Source: Planctomycetota bacterium
GTDB taxonomy: Bacteria > Planctomycetota > JAJSAM01 > JAJVHW01
DNA: 64,000 bases
Assembly: GCA_965248445.1 (NCBI GenBank)
Contig: CBDFJG010000001.1
Coordinates: forward strand, 416,001 to 480,000
Direction of reading: 5' to 3'
Positions 20,842-55,451 of the stretch are shown one piece after another. The notes under the pieces are model-generated. The model did no database searches. It saw only the letters and a list, made by a program, of their open reading frames with translations, and had not been told where the DNA came from. Made by a program: the position numbers and the translations under genes. Each line of letters begins with the position of its first letter. The first letter of the stretch is position 1.

Positions 20842-22662
20842 TCACTCCAGCGAGCGCAGGAACCCGCGCACACGGTCGGCCCCAACGCCATCGGGCGTGA
20901 TTTCGAGCGCCCTCTCGTACGCGCGGCGCGCCTGTTCCCGGTCGCCCTCCGCCTGGAGTGCGCGGCCCACCTGTGCGAAGAAGCGGAAACTCTCGCCCTC
21001 GTCGAGTTCCATTCCGGCGCGGTCCGCAGCGTGCATCGCCGCGGCCGCCTCACCCGGACGGCGGAGCCGCAGGAGAGACCAGGCGCGGTTGTAGTGCCCC
21101 TCCCCCGAGTCCGGACGGATGGCGAGAGCCTCGTTCGCGTACGCGAGCGCGTCTTCGTGACGCCCCAGTGCAATGGCGACATTGGACGCATTCACAAGAG
21201 GGACCGACGCGACGTGGTACTGCGGAGGCCACGGATCGATCTGGCGTTTCCATCCTTCAATTGCGGCGTCGAGGTGCCACAGAGCGCCGTTGAACGCTAC
21301 GACGGACATGTGGCGCCATGCCTCGGCCTCCGCCGCGTCGTCCGCTTCGCGGGCGCGTCTGCGCAGCGCCCAGCCGCGTTCCCGTTGCTGATTGCCCGCC
21401 CACGTGTGGGCGCGCACGCTGTCGTGCTGCTCGAGCGTCTCGGTGTAGATCGTCGCGTCGTCCCGCCAGTCCGGCACGCGCTGGGCGGCGATCGCCCCCA
21501 TGGCGAGCGCCGCCATCCAGACGGCCGCGAGCGCCGCGCGGCTGCCCACTCTCGCGACGCCGGCGCCGACGAGGAGGACGAGGCCCACCAGCGGCACGTA
21601 GAGGAAGCGCTCCGTCGTCGGGATGCCGAGATCGAACGGCCAGTTCGCGACCGGCAGGAGCGCCCCGTAGAACAGCAGCACGCCCGCGAGCGGCACACAG
21701 CGGCCGCGACGGTAGAGCACGGCCGCACCCGCCACGACTCCGAGGTGCACAGCCAACCACGCCAGTGCCACGGGATCGGCGAGCGTCCGGCTGACGGGCA
21801 AGTACCAGTCGTAGGCGGGAGCGACCGGAAGGGCGGCAAACGTCAGGTACGCGCCGAACCCCTTGAACATCGTCGCGAACACACCCGCGACGCCACCGCC
21901 GATGCGGTACCCGACGTGACTGTCCGCTCCCTCGATCAGCCCGAAGCGGTAGACGGCGTAGAGCACAGCGACGGCCACGTACGGCAGCGCGGCCCGCGCT
22001 GCCGAAGCAAGCGGCCGACGCCCGTCGCGCGGCCGAACCAGCAGGACGGCGAACACCAGGAGCGGCAGCACGATCGCCGTCTCCTTCCAGAGCATGGCGA
22101 GCACCGCGCCAGCGAGCGCAAACGCCAGCCAGCGGTCGCGGCCGTTCGAACGCAGCGCGCAATAGAGCGTCGCGGCCGCGAACGCCCCCATGGCGACGTC
22201 TGCGCGGAACCCGATCGCGGCGACCGGCTCGACGTGCATCGGATGCAGCGCCCACACCGCCGCTCCGGCAAGCGCGGCACGCGCATCGCCGAGCAGCCGT
22301 CGGAGGAGACTCAGCACCAGCACGCAAGCGAGTGCGTGCCAGACGACCGAGTGCCAGTGGAAGATCGCGGCCCCTGCGCCGAGCGCCCGGTCGAAGCGAT
22401 ACTCGAGAGTCCGCAGGGGGCGCACGATGCCGCCGTCGTCCCGGGCATCCACGGTCATGGGATCGACGAACGCCCGCCACCACTCGCCCTCTCCGCTGAC
22501 GAACGGGTTCTCGAGGATGAAACGGCTGTCATCGACCGCGAAGCCATTGGTGGCGGCGCCGTATCCGTAGACCGCGACGACGAGCGCGGTGAGAAGGAGA
22601 GCCCCGGCGGCCGGGTGACCCAGAGCGCTTGCGGCCGTCGTGGGCACGACGTCGTCGCTCAC
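20842..22662 (-). CDS. TMTC-like polytopic membrane glycosyltransferase (GT-C fold) with C-terminal TPRs
   Basis: FAVDD..FILENP, RPL, LHPMHVEPV, KET, ERFLYVP, W.DD, TPR helices. Confidence 0.75.
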   Translation of the reverse strand: MSDDVVPTTAASALGHPAAGALLLTALVVAVYGYGAATNGFAVDDSRFILENPFVSGEGEWWRAFVDPMTVDARDDGGIVRPLRTLEYRFDRALGAGAAIFHWHSVVWHALACVLVLSLLRRLLGDARAALAGAAVWALHPMHVEPVAAIGFRADVAMGAFAAATLYCALRSNGRDRWLAFALAGAVLAMLWKETAIVLPLLVFAVLLVRPRDGRRPLASAARAALPYVAVAVLYAVYRFGLIEGADSHVGYRIGGGVAGVFATMFKGFGAYLTFAALPVAPAYDWYLPVSRTLADPVALAWLAVHLGVVAGAAVLYRRGRCVPLAGVLLFYGALLPVANWPFDLGIPTTERFLYVPLVGLVLLVGAGVARVGSRAALAAVWMAALAMGAIAAQRVPDWRDDATIYTETLEQHDSVRAHTWAGNQQRERGWALRRRAREADDAAEAEAWRHMSVVAFNGALWHLDAAIEGWKRQIDPWPPQYHVASVPLVNASNVAIALGRHEDALAYANEALAIRPDSGEGHYNRAWSLLRLRRPGEAAAAMHAADRAGMELDEGESFRFFAQVGRALQAEGDREQARRAYERALEITPDGVGADRVRGFLRSLE

Positions 22663-23474
22663 GCGTCCGATTCAGTTCCGGTCAGGTGTTCGCGCATACG
22701 TTCAGCCAGCCACGAGGGGCGCTCGACGGCGACGGTGTGACCGCAGCGCTCTACCTCGAGGAAGTGCGTGTCCGGGAGCAGGTCCACGAGTTCGTCGTTC
22801 AAGAAACGCGGCACGAGCGGGTCGTCCACTCCGCGAATCACGAGAGCAGCGGCGCGTACAGACTTCAGCTCTTCCCCGAAGTCGCCACCCGGGAGAAGCG
22901 TGTCGAGCAGCATGCGCCGCATGCTCTCCGGATCGTTCCGCCGCCGGAACGCGCGCAGCATCTGCTCGCGCATCTGCTCGTTCTCGCGCAGCCATTCTTC
23001 CCCCACCACGTCCGGGGTGACGACCTGGAACAGGAGGTCCTGACCCCCCGCGTCCAGCGCGTCGAGCCAGCCCTGCACGATCCAGCGCCGCAGCGCGGTC
23101 TCGCGGTGGGCACAGCCGATGAGGACCAGCCGCCGCACGCGCTCGGGCGCCGCGAGAACAACCCGGAGCGCCACACGCGATCCGAACGAGAAGCCGACGA
23201 GATCAACCTGATCCAGTTCGAGCGTGTCGAGCAGGTGGAGCAGGTCGCGACCGTGGTCAGCGGTGCGGGAGCCCTCCGGTGGCGGATCGCTCTTGCCCTG
23301 GCCGGACGCGTCGTACAGCAGGACGTCACGAACTCCGCGCAGCCGCTTCACCTGCAGGCCCCACGCGATGGTGGTCTGCGAGAGTCCGTTCAGGAACACG
23401 ACCACCGGGCCGCCCCCCTGGCGGCGCAGCTCGTAGCGGAGCCGGCGGCCGTCGGGAAGTGCGTGGACCTTCAT
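22659..23474 (-). CDS. Alpha/beta hydrolase
   Basis: GFSFG nucleophile elbow, DDPLVP, GHT. Confidence 0.9.
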   Translation of the reverse strand: MKVHALPDGRRLRYELRRQGGGPVVVFLNGLSQTTIAWGLQVKRLRGVRDVLLYDASGQGKSDPPPEGSRTADHGRDLLHLLDTLELDQVDLVGFSFGSRVALRVVLAAPERVRRLVLIGCAHRETALRRWIVQGWLDALDAGGQDLLFQVVTPDVVGEEWLRENEQMREQMLRAFRRRNDPESMRRMLLDTLLPGGDFGEELKSVRAAALVIRGVDDPLVPRFLNDELVDLLPDTHFLEVERCGHTVAVERPSWLAERMREHLTGTESDA

Positions 23475-23551
23475 CGCGTTCAGAGAATCGCACGATTCCC
23501 GCCGCGGGCCGAACGATGTAGGCTCTCGGGACGAACACCCCGGAGGTCACC

Positions 23552-23641
23552 ATGCCGAGCTGGCTCATCTTCGCAATCGGCGCCGTCGCGGGACTGGTGC
23601 TCATCACCATCCTCAAGGGCGGAGGCGGCGGCTGAGGCTAG
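23552..23641 (+). CDS. Single-TM microprotein MPSWLIFAIGAVAGLVLITILKGGGGG(U)G; candidate selenoprotein (29 aa with Sec, 27 aa if UGA is a stop)
   Basis: GGAGG RBS, ATG at 23552, hydrophobic helix, TGA 23633-23635 then GGC TAG; SECIS-like hairpin follows. Confidence 0.6.
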
Positions 23642-23673
23642 CCCTCACGCCGTCCGTCGGACGGCAGCTAGCC
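23636..23673 (+). promoter_or_regulatory. Candidate bacterial SECIS hairpin (could alternatively be a terminator between convergent genes)
   Basis: Lower stem GGCTAGC/GCTAGCC; upper stem GCCGTCC/GGACGGC; loop GTC begins 20 nt after the UGA. Confidence 0.5.
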
Positions 23674-26322
23674 CTTCTTCGCGCTCTTCTTCGTGCTCTT
23701 CGTGGCGGTCTTCTTCGCCGCCTTCTTGCGCGTTGTCTTCTTGCGGGTCGTCTTCTTGGTGCCCTTGCGTCCGCCACCCGAGGCGACGCGCTTCTCGATG
23801 AGGTCGACGGCCTCCTCGACGGTCAACGCCGCGGGGTCCGCGTAGTCCCTCGGCAGCGATGCGTTGATCTCGCCGTCGGTGACGTAAGGACCGTACCGGC
23901 CCTTCAGGAGTCGGATGTCGGCGCCACCTCGCGCTTCGACCTTCTCGAACGTCTTGATCGGTTCGACCGTCCGCCGAGTGCGCTTCTCTTTCGCGAACAG
24001 CTCGAGCGCTCGAGGCAGTCCGACCGTCAGCACGCCGTCCGTCGCTTCGAGGCTGCGGTACTCCTTCTCGCGCTTCACGAAGGGGCCGTAGCGCCCGACA
24101 CCGGCCTCGATCACGCGGCCCTCGGCATCCACGCCCAACGGCCGCGGCAGCGAAAGCAGTTCCAGCGCGACGTCGAGTGTGACGGAGTCCGGCGCCATGC
24201 CCTTGAGCAACGAGACCATCTTGGGCTTCTCTTCGGACTCGTCCTTTGTGCCGAGCTGGACATACGGTCCGAAGCGCCCGTTCTTCACGAAGACCGGCTT
24301 GCCGTTCTCCGGGTGCTCGCCGATGGGCGTGTCGCCCTTGCGCACCGTCTCGAGCATCTCGATCGCCTTGTCGAGCGAGAGCTCGTCGGGCGGCGTCTTT
24401 TCGGGAACGCGCGCGGTGTCATCACCGCGTGAGATGAACGGACCGTACCGCCCGACACGAATCGCGACCGGCGTGCCGTCCGCGTCGACCCCGAGGGGGA
24501 TCGTGCAGACCGTGCGCGGATCGATCTCCTCCGCCTTCGTGTCGAGCGTGTTGCGGAGTCCGCGCTCGCCACGATAGAAGTCGTTCAGGTAGGCCAGCGT
24601 CTGTTCCTCGCCCCGCGCGATCGCGTCCAGGCGATCTTCCATGCGCGCAGTGAAGTCGAGATCGATGAGCGCGGTCAGGTGCTCGCGCATCAGGCGGACG
24701 ACGGCGAACGCCGTGAACGTCGGGACCAGGGCGTTGCCCTTCTTGAACGTGTACTCGCGCCGCTGGATCGTGTCGATGATCGACGCGTAGGTGCTCGGAC
24801 GGCCGATGCCCGACTCCTCGAGCAGCTTGACGAGCGTGGCCTCGGTGAGGCGGGCCGGCGGCGACGTCGTGTGGGACTCGGACTCGAGCCCGCCGAGTGT
24901 CAGCGGGTCGCCCTCCGCGAGCGCCGGGAGCAGGACGTCCTTGTCGGCCAGCGCGGCCTCGGGGTCATCGGATCCCTCGACGTATGCCCGCAGGAAGCCC
25001 GGGCGGTCGATCACCGTGCCGCCTGCGTGGAACACGGCGAGCTTGCCGTTCGCACTGCCGCCGACGCGAAGAACCATGCGCCGACCGACGGCGTCCCGCA
25101 TCTGGCACGCCATCGTGCGTTTCCAGATGAGCTCGTAGAGGCGCGCCTCGTCATCGCCGAGCTTCGCACGCACGTCGCTGACCGTGCGAACGTGCGAGCC
25201 GGCCGGGCGGATGGCCTCGTGGGCCTCCTGCGCGTTCTTGACCTTGTTCTTGTACTGGCGCGGGTTCGGCGGCAGTTCGTCCTCGCCGTAGGTCTTCGCG
25301 ATCGCCTGGCGGGTCATCCGGATCGCGTCGCCGGAGAGCGCGACCGAGTCCGTTCGCATGTAGGTGATGTAGCCGTTCTCGTACAGCTTCTGCGCCGCAC
25401 GCATCGTTCGGCGAGCGTCGAAGCGCAGCTTGCGGTTGCCCTCCTGCTGCAGCGTCGAGGTCGTGAACGGCGCGGCAGGCCGGCGGACGTAGGGCTTTTC
25501 CTGTGCGTCGGTCACGGAGAACGACGCGGAGCCGAGCGCGTCGGCGAGACCGCGTGCGTCGTCCCCGCCGAGCAGGGCTACCTTCGCGTTCTTCAGCTTG
25601 CCCGTGTCGGCGTCGAAGTCCTTCCCCGTCGCGATGCGCGCGCCGTCGAGTTCGATCAGGCGAGCCTGGAATGCCGCGCCGTCCTTCGTCTTGAAACTGG
25701 CGAGCAGATCCCAGTAAGTCGCTTCGTGGAAACGCATGCGCGCCTGCTCGCGCTCGACGATCACTCGGGTGGCGACGCTCTGCACGCGGCCGGCGGACAA
25801 GCGCGGCGCGATCTTGCGCCAGAGGATCGGCGAGACCTCGTAGCCGTACAGGCGGTCGATGATGCGCCGTGTCTCCTGCGCCTCGACGAGGTTCTTGTCG
25901 ATCTCGCGGGTCTCGCCGACGGCCCTCTCGATGGCCTGGCGGGTGATCTCGTGGAACACCATGCGGTGGACCGGGACCTTGGGAGCGAGCAGCTGCACGA
26001 TGTGCCAGCTGATCGCCTCGCCCTCGCGGTCCTCATCGGTCGCGAGGTAGATCGAGTCGACCGTTTTCGCCAGTTTCCGGAGCGCCGCGATGCGGTCCTT
26101 CTTGTCTGGCTGAATGACGTAGAGCGGCTTGAAATCGTCGTCGACGTTCACGCCGAGCCTGGCCCACTTCTCCTTCTTGTACTTCGCCGGTATCTGCGCA
26201 GCGTTGCCGGGCAGGTCCCGCACGTGACCCACGGTCGCTTCCACGATGTAGTCGTCGCCCAGGAAACGGCGCAGGGTGCGCGCCTTGGTCGGCGACTCGA
26301 CGATGACGAGGTGCTTGGCCAT
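23668..26322 (-). CDS. topA: DNA topoisomerase I with C-terminal Toprim_C repeats and Lys-rich tail
   Basis: IVESPTKA, ATDEDREGE, SAGRVQS, ITYMRTDS, repeated GRYGP(F/Y) motifs. Confidence 0.97.
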   Translation of the reverse strand: MAKHLVIVESPTKARTLRRFLGDDYIVEATVGHVRDLPGNAAQIPAKYKKEKWARLGVNVDDDFKPLYVIQPDKKDRIAALRKLAKTVDSIYLATDEDREGEAISWHIVQLLAPKVPVHRMVFHEITRQAIERAVGETREIDKNLVEAQETRRIIDRLYGYEVSPILWRKIAPRLSAGRVQSVATRVIVEREQARMRFHEATYWDLLASFKTKDGAAFQARLIELDGARIATGKDFDADTGKLKNAKVALLGGDDARGLADALGSASFSVTDAQEKPYVRRPAAPFTTSTLQQEGNRKLRFDARRTMRAAQKLYENGYITYMRTDSVALSGDAIRMTRQAIAKTYGEDELPPNPRQYKNKVKNAQEAHEAIRPAGSHVRTVSDVRAKLGDDEARLYELIWKRTMACQMRDAVGRRMVLRVGGSANGKLAVFHAGGTVIDRPGFLRAYVEGSDDPEAALADKDVLLPALAEGDPLTLGGLESESHTTSPPARLTEATLVKLLEESGIGRPSTYASIIDTIQRREYTFKKGNALVPTFTAFAVVRLMREHLTALIDLDFTARMEDRLDAIARGEEQTLAYLNDFYRGERGLRNTLDTKAEEIDPRTVCTIPLGVDADGTPVAIRVGRYGPFISRGDDTARVPEKTPPDELSLDKAIEMLETVRKGDTPIGEHPENGKPVFVKNGRFGPYVQLGTKDESEEKPKMVSLLKGMAPDSVTLDVALELLSLPRPLGVDAEGRVIEAGVGRYGPFVKREKEYRSLEATDGVLTVGLPRALELFAKEKRTRRTVEPIKTFEKVEARGGADIRLLKGRYGPYVTDGEINASLPRDYADPAALTVEEAVDLIEKRVASGGGRKGTKKTTRKKTTRKKAAKKTATKSTKKSAKKG

Positions 26323-26493
26323 CTGTGGTGCGGGATTCTCCGGTTCGGCGGGCGTTCGTGGACTCGCGGCGCACGCCTCCATGGGTGGCGCGAGCGGAAA
26401 GGGTTACCCGAGATTCGCGGGTCGGACCATGATCTTCCCGGGCGGCAACACCGCTCGCCCCGCGTGCTCCGTAGGAGCAGAGGAGTCGAGAAA

Positions 26494-27424: not shown

Positions 27425-30025
27425 TCATCGCCGCAGATGGTCGAGGATCTCTCGGACGGCCTCGCGGAGCGTCAGGGGCTGCGCCCCACGGCGGCGGTTC
27501 TCCGCAGCGATCCGGAACGCGATGCGCCACTGCTCGAAGAGCACCCGATACGCCTCGACCAGGCCGTGCCTCGGGTCGTAGATGTGCGCCGCCTCGGAGG
27601 TGAGGCCGTTGAGTTCGAGGATGCGGAACCCCTCTCCGCGGCGAAACACGTCGAGATCGGTCGCCCGAACGTCGTACCGGCCGAAGTAGAAGCCGCCGAA
27701 CGCGCGGCTGATGCGGTCGAACGCGTCCTCGAGCGCCGGAGTGCGGAACGCCTCCCCGTCCAGGAACACAGCGCCCAGGGAATGCGTGCCGATCTCCGCG
27801 ATCGGCGCCTCCGCACCCACCGCGGGCACGGTGCGCAGTCGCGAGGCGTTCGTGCGGAGGTACACCGGCGCCATCCGCACGGCACGGGCGTCGTCGAGAA
27901 TCAGCCGTTCCAGCGTGCGGACGCCGTCGCCCGTGAGCGTCGGGAGCCGCTTCTCCGCGATCGAGAACACGCACCCGCGCTCCTCGCCGGGAATGCGGTA
28001 GTAGAAGACACCGAACTCGTGCCCATCGGCGTACTCCTGCACGATCGTGTCCCGCGTCGCGGCGGCGAGGTACGTACCGAGTTGCGCGTCGTCCCGGACG
28101 ATGCTGACGCCCTCGCCGCGCTCTCCGACATCCGGTTTCAACACGACGGGGTACGAGAGTTCGTGGTCACGCAGAAACGCGTTCGCCGCGGCGACGCGCT
28201 CAGCTGCGCCGAGGTTCGCGCCGACCGTCCGCAGCGCGGGCACCGGAGCCCCACTGGCGCGGAGGGCCTCCAGAATCTCGCTCTTCGACTCGCCGACGAG
28301 ACCACCGCCTCGGATCGCCGGGTTCACGGCCGTCACGAGTGAGAGGCTGCGGTGCCGCAGCGCCAGCCACACGACGTACGCCGTGACGGGGGCGTAGAAG
28401 ACCCAGCGTGGCCAGAACTCGAAGTGACGAACGCGCCCGAACGAGCCAACGAGGAGACGCCGACCACGGTGGCTCAGCAGCTTCAGGCCGACGCGCTCGA
28501 CGAAGAAGATCGCGGCGATGAGGATCAGCGCGGCGGGCAGCCCCCACCTGCCCAGTTGCTCGAGAGAGTCGTACGCTCGGGTGCCGACCAACGCGGAGAA
28601 TCCCACGATGATGGGTGTCCAGATCGCGCAGGCGAGTGCGAAGTAGAGAGTGCACACCGCCAGGTTCGTGCGCAGGACGCCGGCCGCGACGTAGGTCGGC
28701 AGGCGTAATCCGGGGACGAAGCGAGAGACGAAGATCGCACGAGCGCTGCGCGCGCCGAACCACGCAGCGGCCGCGTCGACACGGTCCCGTGGGATGAACC
28801 AGCGCAGCGGAGCGCGAGAGAGAACCGGACGACCCAGCCAGCGTCCAGCGACGTACAGCGCGAGGTCGCTCAGGAAGTTGCCCAGCCAGCACGCGAGGAT
28901 CGCTGCGACGAAGTCCATCCGACCCTGTGCGACCAGCAGGCCGGCACCGATGCAGGTCAGATCCTCCGAGACGAACGCCGACGCGATCAGGAGTCCCATC
29001 AGAACGAGCAGAGCGAGGCCCGAGAGCGGCGCGACGTCGTCGATGGCGAACGGCGTGGCCGCCGCCGCGACGCGCTCCGGAGCGGCCCCGGCGCGGCCAG
29101 ACACCCGCCCGAGTTCGACCCGATCGAGGAAGCCGCCGACGACATCTGCGACCTCGTCCGTGCGGCTGAAGAGGACGAGATGCCCCTCCGGCAGCCATTG
29201 CAGTTCGCTCTGCGCAACGATCCGGTGGTGCTCGATTGCGACCTCCGGAGGGACGAGCGCATCCTCCCGTCCGTGCACGATGAGCATCGGGCCGGCATGG
29301 CGCTCGAGCATGGCGCGCAGCGGGCGCTGATCGGTGTCGAAGAAGTTCCGCGCATACGGCACGCCGAACGCCGCGTCGTCGAACGCGCCGAAGTGCGGAA
29401 ACCCCCAGTCGATCGCGCGAATCATCGCGAGCTGCATGCCGTGCACCACGTGGTTCATGCGGTACGAGCCGAACAGCTCGAGCTCTTGGACGCCGATAGC
29501 AGAGATCATGGAGACGGAACGGATTCGGTCGGGCGCCCGGTCCGCCGCGCGGACCGCCGCGCCGCCCGCCATGCTGAACGCCACGAGGTGGGCACTCTCG
29601 CGTCCCAGTTCGTCGAGCAGCTGCTGGACGTACAGGGAGTGGGCGTCGGTCGAGTAGTCCGGCACGTGCCGTTCGGAGTGCATGAAGCCGGGTAGGTCCG
29701 GCACGAAGACGTCGTATCGCTCGCCGAGACGAGCGCCCATCGCGCCGAAGTCCTGGATGCTGCCCGGGCTGCCGTGGAGCAGCACCACGGCCGGAGCATC
29801 CGGCCGTCCACCGGGCGGGAAGCGCCGATAGACGACGCGGACGGACTGCGCAGTGAGTTCACCGCCGTCCACTGCACGCAGATGCGCCACTTGCTGACCC
29901 GGAAGAAGAGGCCTCTTGTCGCTCCGGGCCGCCGCCACGAGGTGCGAGACCACCAGAACGAGCACGTAGGCGATCAAGAGACGGACTGGCCAGCGTCTAC
30001 GCGGCCGGGCGATCTCCGCGTCCAT
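27425..30025 (-). CDS. Alpha/beta hydrolase + DedA/VTT + ATP-grasp fusion protein
   Basis: Hydrolase: HGSPG, AFSMAG, EDALVP, GH. DedA: SEDLTCI, SRFVPGLR. ATP-grasp: VLKPDVGERG, IVQEY, FGRYDV, LELNG. Confidence 0.85.
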   Translation of the reverse strand: MDAEIARPRRRWPVRLLIAYVLVLVVSHLVAAARSDKRPLLPGQQVAHLRAVDGGELTAQSVRVVYRRFPPGGRPDAPAVVLLHGSPGSIQDFGAMGARLGERYDVFVPDLPGFMHSERHVPDYSTDAHSLYVQQLLDELGRESAHLVAFSMAGGAAVRAADRAPDRIRSVSMISAIGVQELELFGSYRMNHVVHGMQLAMIRAIDWGFPHFGAFDDAAFGVPYARNFFDTDQRPLRAMLERHAGPMLIVHGREDALVPPEVAIEHHRIVAQSELQWLPEGHLVLFSRTDEVADVVGGFLDRVELGRVSGRAGAAPERVAAAATPFAIDDVAPLSGLALLVLMGLLIASAFVSEDLTCIGAGLLVAQGRMDFVAAILACWLGNFLSDLALYVAGRWLGRPVLSRAPLRWFIPRDRVDAAAAWFGARSARAIFVSRFVPGLRLPTYVAAGVLRTNLAVCTLYFALACAIWTPIIVGFSALVGTRAYDSLEQLGRWGLPAALILIAAIFFVERVGLKLLSHRGRRLLVGSFGRVRHFEFWPRWVFYAPVTAYVVWLALRHRSLSLVTAVNPAIRGGGLVGESKSEILEALRASGAPVPALRTVGANLGAAERVAAANAFLRDHELSYPVVLKPDVGERGEGVSIVRDDAQLGTYLAAATRDTIVQEYADGHEFGVFYYRIPGEERGCVFSIAEKRLPTLTGDGVRTLERLILDDARAVRMAPVYLRTNASRLRTVPAVGAEAPIAEIGTHSLGAVFLDGEAFRTPALEDAFDRISRAFGGFYFGRYDVRATDLDVFRRGEGFRILELNGLTSEAAHIYDPRHGLVEAYRVLFEQWRIAFRIAAENRRRGAQPLTLREAVREILDHLRR

Positions 30026-55025: not shown

Positions 55026-55451
55026 ATGAGCAGCAAGAAGGTCCTGATCGGCGCGGCGGTGCTGATCGTCGGCGTCGTCGGCTACGTGTCGGTGTTCATG
55101 GGTCACTCCGCCGCGTCCCTGACGCCCGTGGAGGCCGGCAGTACGGCCAAAGCCGGGTTGATCTCGTCCGGCGAAGCGGTGGATCTCGCAGCCCACGCGC
55201 GGGCACAGGGGCTGACCGTCTTCGAATTCATGTCGCCCATGTGAATGGGCTGCAAGGTGCTCGCGCCTCGGGTCGAGGCGCTCGTGAACGGCCGGGACGA
55301 CGCGACGCTGCGGGTCATCAACATCGGGGGCGGCAGTTCCGCCGTGGTCAACCAGTACCAGGTGCCGTCGGTCCCCTACCTCGTGCTCTACGAGGACGGC
55401 GTCGAGGTCGCGAGGGGCCGCGAAGAAGTGCTCGCCCGCCTGGGCGACTGA
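55026..55451 (+). CDS. Membrane-anchored thioredoxin-like selenoprotein (UMGC motif, Sec73)
   Basis: In-frame TGA at 55242-55244 occupies the first Cys position of the Trx motif (VFEFMSPM-U-MGC); cis-Pro VPYL downstream; SECIS-like hairpin. Confidence 0.88.
55245..55281 (+). promoter_or_regulatory. Bacterial SECIS-like element
   Basis: Stem GCGCCTCG (55263-55270)/CGAGGCGC (55274-55281); loop GGT begins 26 nt after the UGA. Confidence 0.7.

Follow-up and report, generated by a model that had tools for sequence, protein, structure and literature searches.

Does a TGA codon standing one codon before the second in-frame stop of a very short gene end a small membrane peptide, or does it encode selenocysteine (Sec)? 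The question is raised by an open reading frame (ORF) that lies between the genes for an alpha/beta hydrolase and for DNA topoisomerase I (topA) in a genome of the Planctomycetota, within the stretch of 64,000 nucleotides that was analyzed as a whole (hereafter called the window). An initial annotation of this DNA considered the ORF to be a candidate selenium microprotein, with a single membrane helix and a hairpin resembling a bacterial Sec insertion sequence (SECIS). We have analyzed the locus together with its homologues and with the genome to which it belongs (G000, hereafter the reference genome). The features under discussion are collected in table 1.

Table 1. Features of the Microprotein Locus (Window Coordinates) and Candidate Sec Sites Elsewhere in the Reference Genome (Contig Coordinates)
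Feature	Position	Strand	Remarks
Microprotein gene	23552..23641	+	ATG at 23552, 27 codons, TGA (predicted Sec), Gly, TAG
Shine-Dalgarno GGAGG	23542..23546	+	Separated from the ATG by 5 nt
-10-like hexamer TAGGCT, putative own promoter	23519..23524	+	Single TAnnnT hexamer
Predicted transmembrane helix, residues 3-21	23558..23614	+	Kyte-Doolittle; followed by Lys and Gly linker
In-frame TGA, predicted penultimate Sec	23633..23635	+	TGA in 7/7 homologues
True stop TAG	23639..23641	+	Second in-frame stop, one codon past the TGA
Predicted bacterial SECIS, 7-bp stem and GUC loop	23649..23665	+	Wholly in the 3' untranslated region
Lower stem GGCTAGC/GCTAGCC, arms at the outer ends of the two-stem hairpin	23636..23673	+	Overlaps the topA stop; not conserved
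Alpha/beta hydrolase, divergent neighbour	22659..23474	-	Synteny anchor
DNA topoisomerase I (topA), convergent neighbour	23668..26382	-	Stop at 23668-23670
Candidate Sec sites, contig C1	172965 (-), 614313 (-), 315009 (+)		UxxC/CxxU-type context
Candidate Sec sites, contig C3	1530783 (+), 1771889 (-), 628783 (-)		UxxC/CxxU-type context
Candidate Sec sites, contig C4	1613192 (-), 548911 (-), 135754 (-), 1756433 (-), 1902683 (+)		UxxC/CxxU-type context

Gene Structure and Coding Evidence

The ORF translates as MPSWLIFAIGAVAGLVLITILKGGGGG*G* (asterisks indicating in-frame stops), namely 27 sense codons followed by TGA-GGC-TAG, and its product would have 29 residues if the TGA is decoded but 27 if the TGA acts as a stop. 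Both this ending and the ribosome-binding site (RBS) GGAGG lie where the initial annotation had placed them. The hexamer that it had likened to a -10 box is also present, but a sigma-70 scan of the locus found no full promoter around it, so that we treat it as a lone hexamer. On the basis of hydropathy alone, the best 19-residue Kyte-Doolittle window of the peptide has a mean of 2.45, and its predicted C-terminus reads Gly-Gly-Sec-Gly.

An ORF this short could be a chance hydrophobic frame in an intergenic spacer, and among the sequencing runs listed none recorded as RNA contains it. Against this, the coding frame is the best of the six in every one of the seven family members described below (dicodon model of the reference genome), with GC3 values of 0.81-1.0, and the upstream signals are conserved: a TAnnnT hexamer precedes the start by 12-39 nt in all members, GGAGG or GAGG is present in six, whereas G001 has no RBS and carries the hexamer 6 nt before its GTG. 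Data from other sequencing runs point in the same direction. In one related contig of depth 2.1 (run X5), the 77-nt spacer has diverged at 12 listed places and by four indels, versus a single listed difference, which is synonymous, over the 62 nt of the ORF that are covered. A near-identical contig of run X1 spans the stretch with 0 differences; it probably derives from the source sample and is therefore not independent. A 152-nt contig present in runs X6 and X7 spans positions 23540-23672 with four differences, none of which is listed at the TGA, but it cannot be taken as evidence of expression because X6 (which may be RNA) and X7 appear to represent a single data set. Given the homologues, the best-of-six coding frame and the retention of upstream hexamer and RBS, these sequence data indicate with high confidence that the microprotein gene is real, and the chance frame is strongly disfavoured.

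Distribution and Conservation of the Family

Homologues were located by synteny, with topA and the hydrolase as anchors. The resulting set of seven members comprises the reference gene, those of genomes G001, G005, G006 and G007, and those of the metagenome contigs L103 and L104. The gene is thereby present in five of the eight genomes of its taxonomic family, including four of the seven others (from three other genera), as well as in both metagenome loci. Since these seven sequences are kin, with hydrolase identities to the reference of 63-69% for five of the six homologue loci and 88% for L103, the counts given below should not be multiplied as if they were independent.

The predicted products have 29-35 residues, an uncharged N-terminus followed by Lys or Arg in the tail (7/7), and a best 19-residue hydropathy mean of 2.45-3.28. 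Between 4 and 10 residues separate the helix window from the predicted Sec, which in all members is the penultimate or antepenultimate residue and in six is preceded by Gly-Gly. The tails (U being the predicted Sec) read KGGGGG-U-G, RSGG-U-S, RCGGG-U-GG, RSGG-U-SS, TCRT-U-G, KGSGGG-U-N and CKGGGG-U-G. The peptide of L104 would thus end in Gly-Gly-Sec-Gly like that of the reference genome, and the peptide of G001 in Gly-Gly-Sec-Gly-Gly. Cys is absent from four of the seven peptides, the reference one included, and lies near the predicted Sec in the other three; tails of redox-like appearance are C-R-T-U (G005), S-G-G-U (G006 and G007) and C-G-G-G-U (G001). Two Ala residues placed seven apart are invariant in the alignment, a hint of a possible helix-packing face. 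Two other identities were considered for these peptides and rejected: a lipoprotein signal, which by the lipobox rule does not fit the missing basic N-region and the missing Cys in 4/7 members, and a ubiquitin-like Gly-Gly carrier, which does not fit G005 with its lack of Gly-Gly.

The hydrolase gene adjoins the microprotein gene in all seven loci, partly by construction of the search, with a small membrane-protein gene intervening in G007; topA is adjacent in G000, G001, G006 and G007 but lies about 3 kb away in G005. The neighbourhoods compared gave no functional clue and no linkage to a partner gene. Other features of this region were recorded as side observations. A small two-helix membrane protein ending in LRR is encoded directly upstream of the hydrolase in G007 (L214:1671-1967) and G004 (L216:1113-1349), and is absent there in the reference genome. 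The C-terminus of topA (window 23671-23790, minus strand) forms a histone-like repeat tail rich in Lys, Thr and Ala that is kept in several relatives, and further along the window (27425-30025, minus strand) an 866-residue protein fuses an alpha/beta hydrolase, an UptA/DedA-like membrane domain and an ATP-grasp-like domain.

Among the genomes searched, the gene is found in one family of uncultured Planctomycetota only. It was not found in the other nine genomes of the class, nor in the 294 genomes outside the family that were covered by a profile search of 301 genomes of the phylum; the 14 weak out-of-family matches of this search all lie in open frames of at least 150 residues, and none has the family's ending. 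Genomes G002, G003 and G004 (87, 76 and 89% complete, respectively) also gave no match; all three have a rearranged hydrolase locus, and nothing in them matches topA at more than 41-48% identity, so that loss of the gene and gaps in assembly are indistinguishable in these cases.

Peptides under about 30 residues are often missed by gene calling. A profile search of 1.84 billion protein representatives returned three of the members, whose database entries stop just before the TGA position, plus one unrelated protein. The initial annotation had proposed looking either for Cys at the UGA position or for a conserved TGA near the stop with a covarying hairpin; the latter is found in all seven members, whereas no Cys homologue appeared among the 1.84 billion representatives, in a word search or in the 301 phylum genomes, a 31-position hydrophobic profile having little reach. 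Other searches added little. With the single peptide as query against 61 genomes, the self match alone was significant and true homologues were missed; a loose DNA pattern matched 401 phylum genomes roughly as often as its reversed control did, and a hydrolase-anchored search of the contig collection gave no match. A covariance model run on 17 genomes of the class retrieved weak matches alone beyond the known members, and the loci of these matches held no further case of helix, TGA and hairpin, in a survey that was not exhaustive, G001 and G005 being themselves lost to its open-frame length filter. Finally, a pattern scan of the contig collection yielded 74 loci, of which one is a family member (L191, excluded from our counts because its peptide is identical to one already counted) and two are unrelated terminal-Sec candidates considered later; the other 71 were dropped, as they did not combine a hydrophobic ORF with a long stem.

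A Conserved Hairpin downstream of the TGA

The segment 23636-23673 folds as the two-stem hairpin that had been described in the initial annotation, with an energy of -22.1 kcal/mol (z -4.4; 0/200 shuffles as stable). Its two stems differ in conservation. All 49 cells of the upper stem across the seven members are Watson-Crick, both partners having changed at pairs 3, 4 and 6, whereas the lower stem occurs in its GGCTAGC/GCTAGCC form in the reference genome but in none of the six homologues. The overlap with the topA stop, previously raised as a caveat, is real but limited to the 3' arm of this non-conserved lower stem. The upper stem is perfect in every member, with 7-8 bp, a C-G closing pair, a loop of 3-4 nt and stem energies of -11.6 to -17.0. 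Its G-first loop is retained throughout, being GTC in four members, GGTC in two and GGC in one, and starts 17-21 nt after the TGA; in the reference genome it is the GTC at 20 nt that the initial annotation had singled out.

The spacing of the hairpin is constant relative to the TGA, not to topA, and the structure is kept in G005, where topA is distant and the next gene is co-oriented. A hairpin that is unconserved, or that serves as a terminator for topA only, had been envisaged as evidence contrary to a SECIS; instead, the stem covaries and its distance follows the TGA. The absence of a U-tract is borne out on both strands of the reference locus and extends to the sense strand of the homologues. 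However, this absence does not exclude termination, because T-tracts are rare in this genome: perfect hairpins of at least 7 bp lie downstream of 245 of the 1913 ordinary genes, and just five of them have one. As a separate observation, the next gene in G005 (L213:3915-3925) starts 16 nt past the hairpin, its ATG being preceded at 7 nt by a TAACCT hexamer, possibly a leaderless promoter directly behind the predicted SECIS.

The current model of bacterial SECIS elements specifies a loop of 3-9 nt on a stem of 4-16 bp, a G as the first or second loop nucleotide (mostly G[G/U]), 16-37 nt from UGA to loop and a minimum free energy of at most -7.5 kcal/mol (PMC13188914, its fig. 2A). All seven members fall within all four limits of this model, which is permissive, since 445 of the 1913 ordinary stops of the reference genome also pass it.

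Selenium Machinery and Other Candidate Sec Sites of the Host

The genes selA, selB and selD and the tRNA for Sec (selC) are all present in the reference genome, each above its curated cut-off, and selD carries an in-frame TGA of its own. The initial expectation of a Sec-decoding host is supported by this result, and selA is found in all 17 genomes of the order, among them the four other carrier genomes. A dicodon scan of the reference genome returned 37 TGA read-through candidates, 12 of which were picked for their UxxC/CxxU-type context. Several of these candidate sites have stems of 6-8 bp with G-first triloops (GTG, GGT) situated 18-26 nt past the TGA. When 13 such sites (selD included) were compared with the SECIS model, eight passed in the minimum-energy fold, whereas selD and four others failed.

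The window itself contains one such site, in a gene for a thioredoxin-like, membrane-anchored protein (55026-55451, plus strand) having U-M-G-C at the TGA at 55242; the GGT loop of its 8-bp stem lies 26 nt past this TGA. The eleven further candidate sites listed in table 1 have UxxC, CxxU or similar motifs, many with G-first triloop hairpins. On these sequence features, the reference genome looks rich in selenoproteins. Two additional read-through candidates lack a Cys partner, C1:331183 (-) with GIW-U-PGK and C2:189625 (-) with SLP-U-PSF; in their hairpins, perfect stems of 7-8 bp carry loops of GTT or GGC at distances of 25 and 19 nt, and the two could possibly represent further uncatalogued selenoproteins.

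Is the TGA Decoded as Selenocysteine?

The main alternative to decoding is an ordinary membrane peptide of 27 residues that ends at the TGA, its hairpin being a U-less terminator or an RNA-stabilizing stem and its second stop a back-up. The frequent hairpins behind ordinary genes of the reference genome, nearly always without a T-tract, would suit this reading, as would the facing position of topA in four of the five carrier genomes and the failure of the searches made to find a Cys homologue. TGA is moreover the commonest stop in the reference genome (1132/1913 genes), and the stop of the neighbouring hydrolase is likewise TGA in 5/5 carrier genomes; hence the invariance of the TGA among the seven members, none of which has the TAA or TAG that the initial annotation had considered contrary evidence, is weak when taken alone.

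The combination of a second stop with a specific hairpin argues the other way. A second in-frame stop follows within two sense codons in 7/7 members, as opposed to 52 of the 1913 ordinary long genes of the reference genome; it comes after one codon in five members and after two in the remaining two, and is TAG in four and TGA in three, thereby differing in both codon and position. The residues encoded past the TGA are only one or two small ones (G, S, GG, SS, G, N and G) in all members. Of the seven hydrolase stops scored in the same way, one has a second stop, two codons on. A strict form of the hairpin, drawn up after the homologues were seen, occurs in 7/7 members versus 7/1913 ordinary stops; the same strict form fits only two of the 12 picked UxxC-type sites of the genome, probably because these must also code for protein. 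Even with a loose definition of the hairpin, the combination with a second stop is found in 0/1132 genes ending with TGA. The loops also differ: those of the perfect hairpins behind ordinary genes are scattered, with GTC, GGTC or GGC in just 3/245, and only 4/1913 ordinary genes have, at a spacing of 17-21 nt, a G[GT] loop no longer than 4 nt. In the family, by contrast, the loop and its distance from the TGA are both kept, and the stem covaries. Retention of the hairpin in G005 ahead of a co-oriented gene also speaks against a role bound to convergent topA, and with SelB in the cell a hairpin so placed would be expected to recode the UGA. The ordinary peptide is consequently quite unlikely in our judgement, and the pattern of sequence conservation makes it very likely that the TGA is decoded as Sec.

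Proposed Mechanism and Function

In the mechanism that we propose, the small gene would form a monocistronic unit whose transcription starts from its own -10 element, and a strong RBS would drive its translation. SelB-Sec-tRNA would be bound by the hairpin that lies immediately past the true stop, leading to insertion of Sec at the penultimate UGA, and translation would end one or two codons past this UGA. The product, of 29-35 residues, would begin with a short N-terminus lacking charge, span the membrane once as a helix, and continue through a basic residue and a short, flexible linker to a terminal Sec-Gly, Sec-Ser or Sec-Asn. By general rules it is probably inserted in the inner membrane with the N-terminus out and the C-terminus in, the cytoplasmic location of the tail following from the positive-inside rule. 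Its selenol, exposed at the membrane surface, could react with peroxides or disulfides and be re-reduced by thioredoxin-fold partners, while the resolving residue might be the nearby Cys (in three of the seven homologues), a thiol of a partner or a second molecule of the peptide. We consider a redox handle the best guess because most characterized selenoproteins are oxidoreductases (PMC13188914, section 7) and because of the CxxU, SxxU and CxxxU types of tail. To this reading, that of a Sec-decoded, membrane-tethered selenol with a redox role and partners suggested by analogy, we assign a rough probability of 0.55.

A terminal selenolate is also a soft-metal ligand, and the peptide could be a selenoprotein devoted to the binding of metals or metalloids (Hg, Cu, Ag, As), or to cofactor ligation within a larger membrane complex, its helix packing against a transporter or enzyme. 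Near-terminal Sec does occur in metal-related systems, of which SaoC is one, and an efflux permease of the SO_0444 family presented below ends with HGG-TGA-GGC-TAA followed by a hairpin with a GGTC loop. The invariant Ala pair would provide the packing face, and the lack of a resolving Cys in four of the seven peptides would also suit this role. Nevertheless, no metal-handling gene lies beside the microprotein gene in the four carrier loci with neighbours listed, and the seven members share no conserved His, CC or CU motif; we regard metal binding as unlikely, albeit worth considering.

A different role can be envisaged from the truncated product. Six of the seven forms ending at the TGA terminate in Gly-Gly, as does truncated human SELENOS, in which this end constitutes a degron (PMC7090344). 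Forms ending in Gly-Gly or in Gly-Gly-Sec-X could differ in stability or partners and so report the selenium supply to a membrane partner, which would have a use in a host rich in candidate selenoproteins. However, G005 has C-R-T before the TGA instead of Gly-Gly, and no regulated gene is consistently linked to the family. The known readers of Gly-Gly degrons are, moreover, eukaryotic ubiquitin ligases, of which we know no bacterial counterpart. A selenium-status switch is, in our view, very doubtful, and the redox handle remains the preferred interpretation.

Other Terminal-Sec Candidates and Wider Implications

The two unrelated proteins that emerged from the pattern scan deserve description in their own right. 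In Desulfovibrio caledoniensis, the C-terminal part of an SO_0444-family efflux permease (L197:414-830, minus strand) ends with SRSHGG-TGA-GGC-TAA and is followed by a hairpin with a 6-bp stem and a GGTC loop, making a candidate Gly-Gly-Sec-Gly end; the motif given for the SO_0444 family in the review, namely UxC, is unlike this ending (PMC13188914). In a metagenome-assembled genome of Symbiobacterium thermophilum, a zinc-ribbon protein of the FmdB family (L167:413-673, minus strand) ends with GGCSSGG-TGA-GGC-TGG-TAG, a candidate near-terminal Sec with a 7-bp hairpin and a GGTC loop; FmdB is among the selenoprotein families listed in the same review (PMC13188914). The same type of ending has thus been retrieved in two unrelated proteins from one narrow pattern scan.

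We tentatively suggest, as an idea that could well prove wrong, that a bacterial lineage has independently evolved a minimal version of the SELENOS/SELENOK design, in which the Gly-Gly-Sec-Gly tail would work as a stand-alone tag of the inner membrane for redox reactions or selenium sensing. If so, the present family would be the first representative of a larger and still hidden class of bacterial terminal-Sec peptides and tails, invisible to gene callers, and would offer a 29-residue model for the terminal Sec of SELENOS and SELENOK without the rest of the protein. The catalytic role of these two proteins is still open (10.1101/2021.05.15.444318). As the peptide can be synthesized whole, the chemistry of a membrane-tethered terminal Sec would be directly testable. 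The predicted SECIS is also a clean model element, because it lies wholly in untranslated RNA and is under no coding constraint. For annotation the locus exposes a blind spot, since no broken gene results when Sec occupies the penultimate codon. These implications are limited in breadth to the single family of uncultured Planctomycetota that carries the gene in the genomes searched, with a function proposed by analogy.

Comparison with Known Selenoproteins

The SelK/SelS family is taken here in its general definition. The label SelS/SelK-like applied in the initial annotation holds as an analogy of architecture, since the bacterial peptides share with SELENOS and SELENOK a single membrane helix, a Gly-rich tail and a (here predicted) Sec beside the C-terminus, but it does not hold as family membership: there is no cytosolic domain and no profile match. 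A Pfam scan of the seven members with E values up to 1 gave one weak match to Prominin and nothing to the SELENOS/SELENOK families. Human SELENOS has 189 residues with Sec at 188 and also ends in Gly-Gly-Sec-Gly (PMC7090344), whereas the bacterial peptides have 29-35 residues. The cytosolic helix, long disordered region and p97 site described for SELENOS (10.1101/2021.05.15.444318) are all missing from them. Their predicted Sec lies just 4-10 residues from the helix and would depend on a SECIS of bacterial type, unlike that of SELENOS and SELENOK. By this comparison of architectures, the likeness is best read as convergence. If Sec is inserted, the peptides would be a convergent bacterial counterpart of the human single-helix, terminal-Sec design, and among the shortest genetically encoded selenoproteins.

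Closer precedents for the predicted decoding are found in bacteria. SaoC (NF040734) and the KCU-star proteins (NF033934) have Sec at or beside the C-terminus, as predicted for the microproteins, and in the Sec form of SaoC the sequence UGA-UAG precedes a hairpin, past the stop, whose 7-bp stem is perfect and whose loop is GGU (10.1101/2022.07.06.499078). The published SaoC form and the present gene hence share a UGA succeeded by a stop and, within the 3' untranslated region, a perfect 7-bp stem whose triloop starts with G. The differences lie in the proteins: SaoC and KCU-star carry a Cys-Sec motif, whereas the microprotein is a bare helix without this dipeptide, and SaoC, which in the same account averages about 158 residues, has homologues with Cys-Cys, unlike the microprotein family. 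None of the seven members matches NF040734 or NF033934. The annotation pipeline PGAP is stated to be unable to predict C-terminal Sec (10.1101/2022.07.06.499078).

The 2026 review PMC13188914 names no single-helix microprotein among the 119 families of its Table 1, which gives names and motifs but no lengths, and no selenoprotein model of NCBIfam release 20.0 is matched by the seven members, which produced two weak unrelated matches (E of 0.016 and 0.046). The literature searched, in which subscription journals are thinly covered and supplementary lists may hold entries, likewise presented no bacterial family of such microproteins. Judged from its sequences, the family is very probably a selenoprotein family that is absent from the selenoprotein lists and family libraries checked. 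With the general bacterial selenoproteins of that table (PMC13188914) it shares the UGA, the G-first apical loop 16-37 nt downstream and a host equipped with selA, selB, selC and selD; the decoding mechanism is in this respect already known, and it is the architecture that is, as far as checked, new for bacteria.
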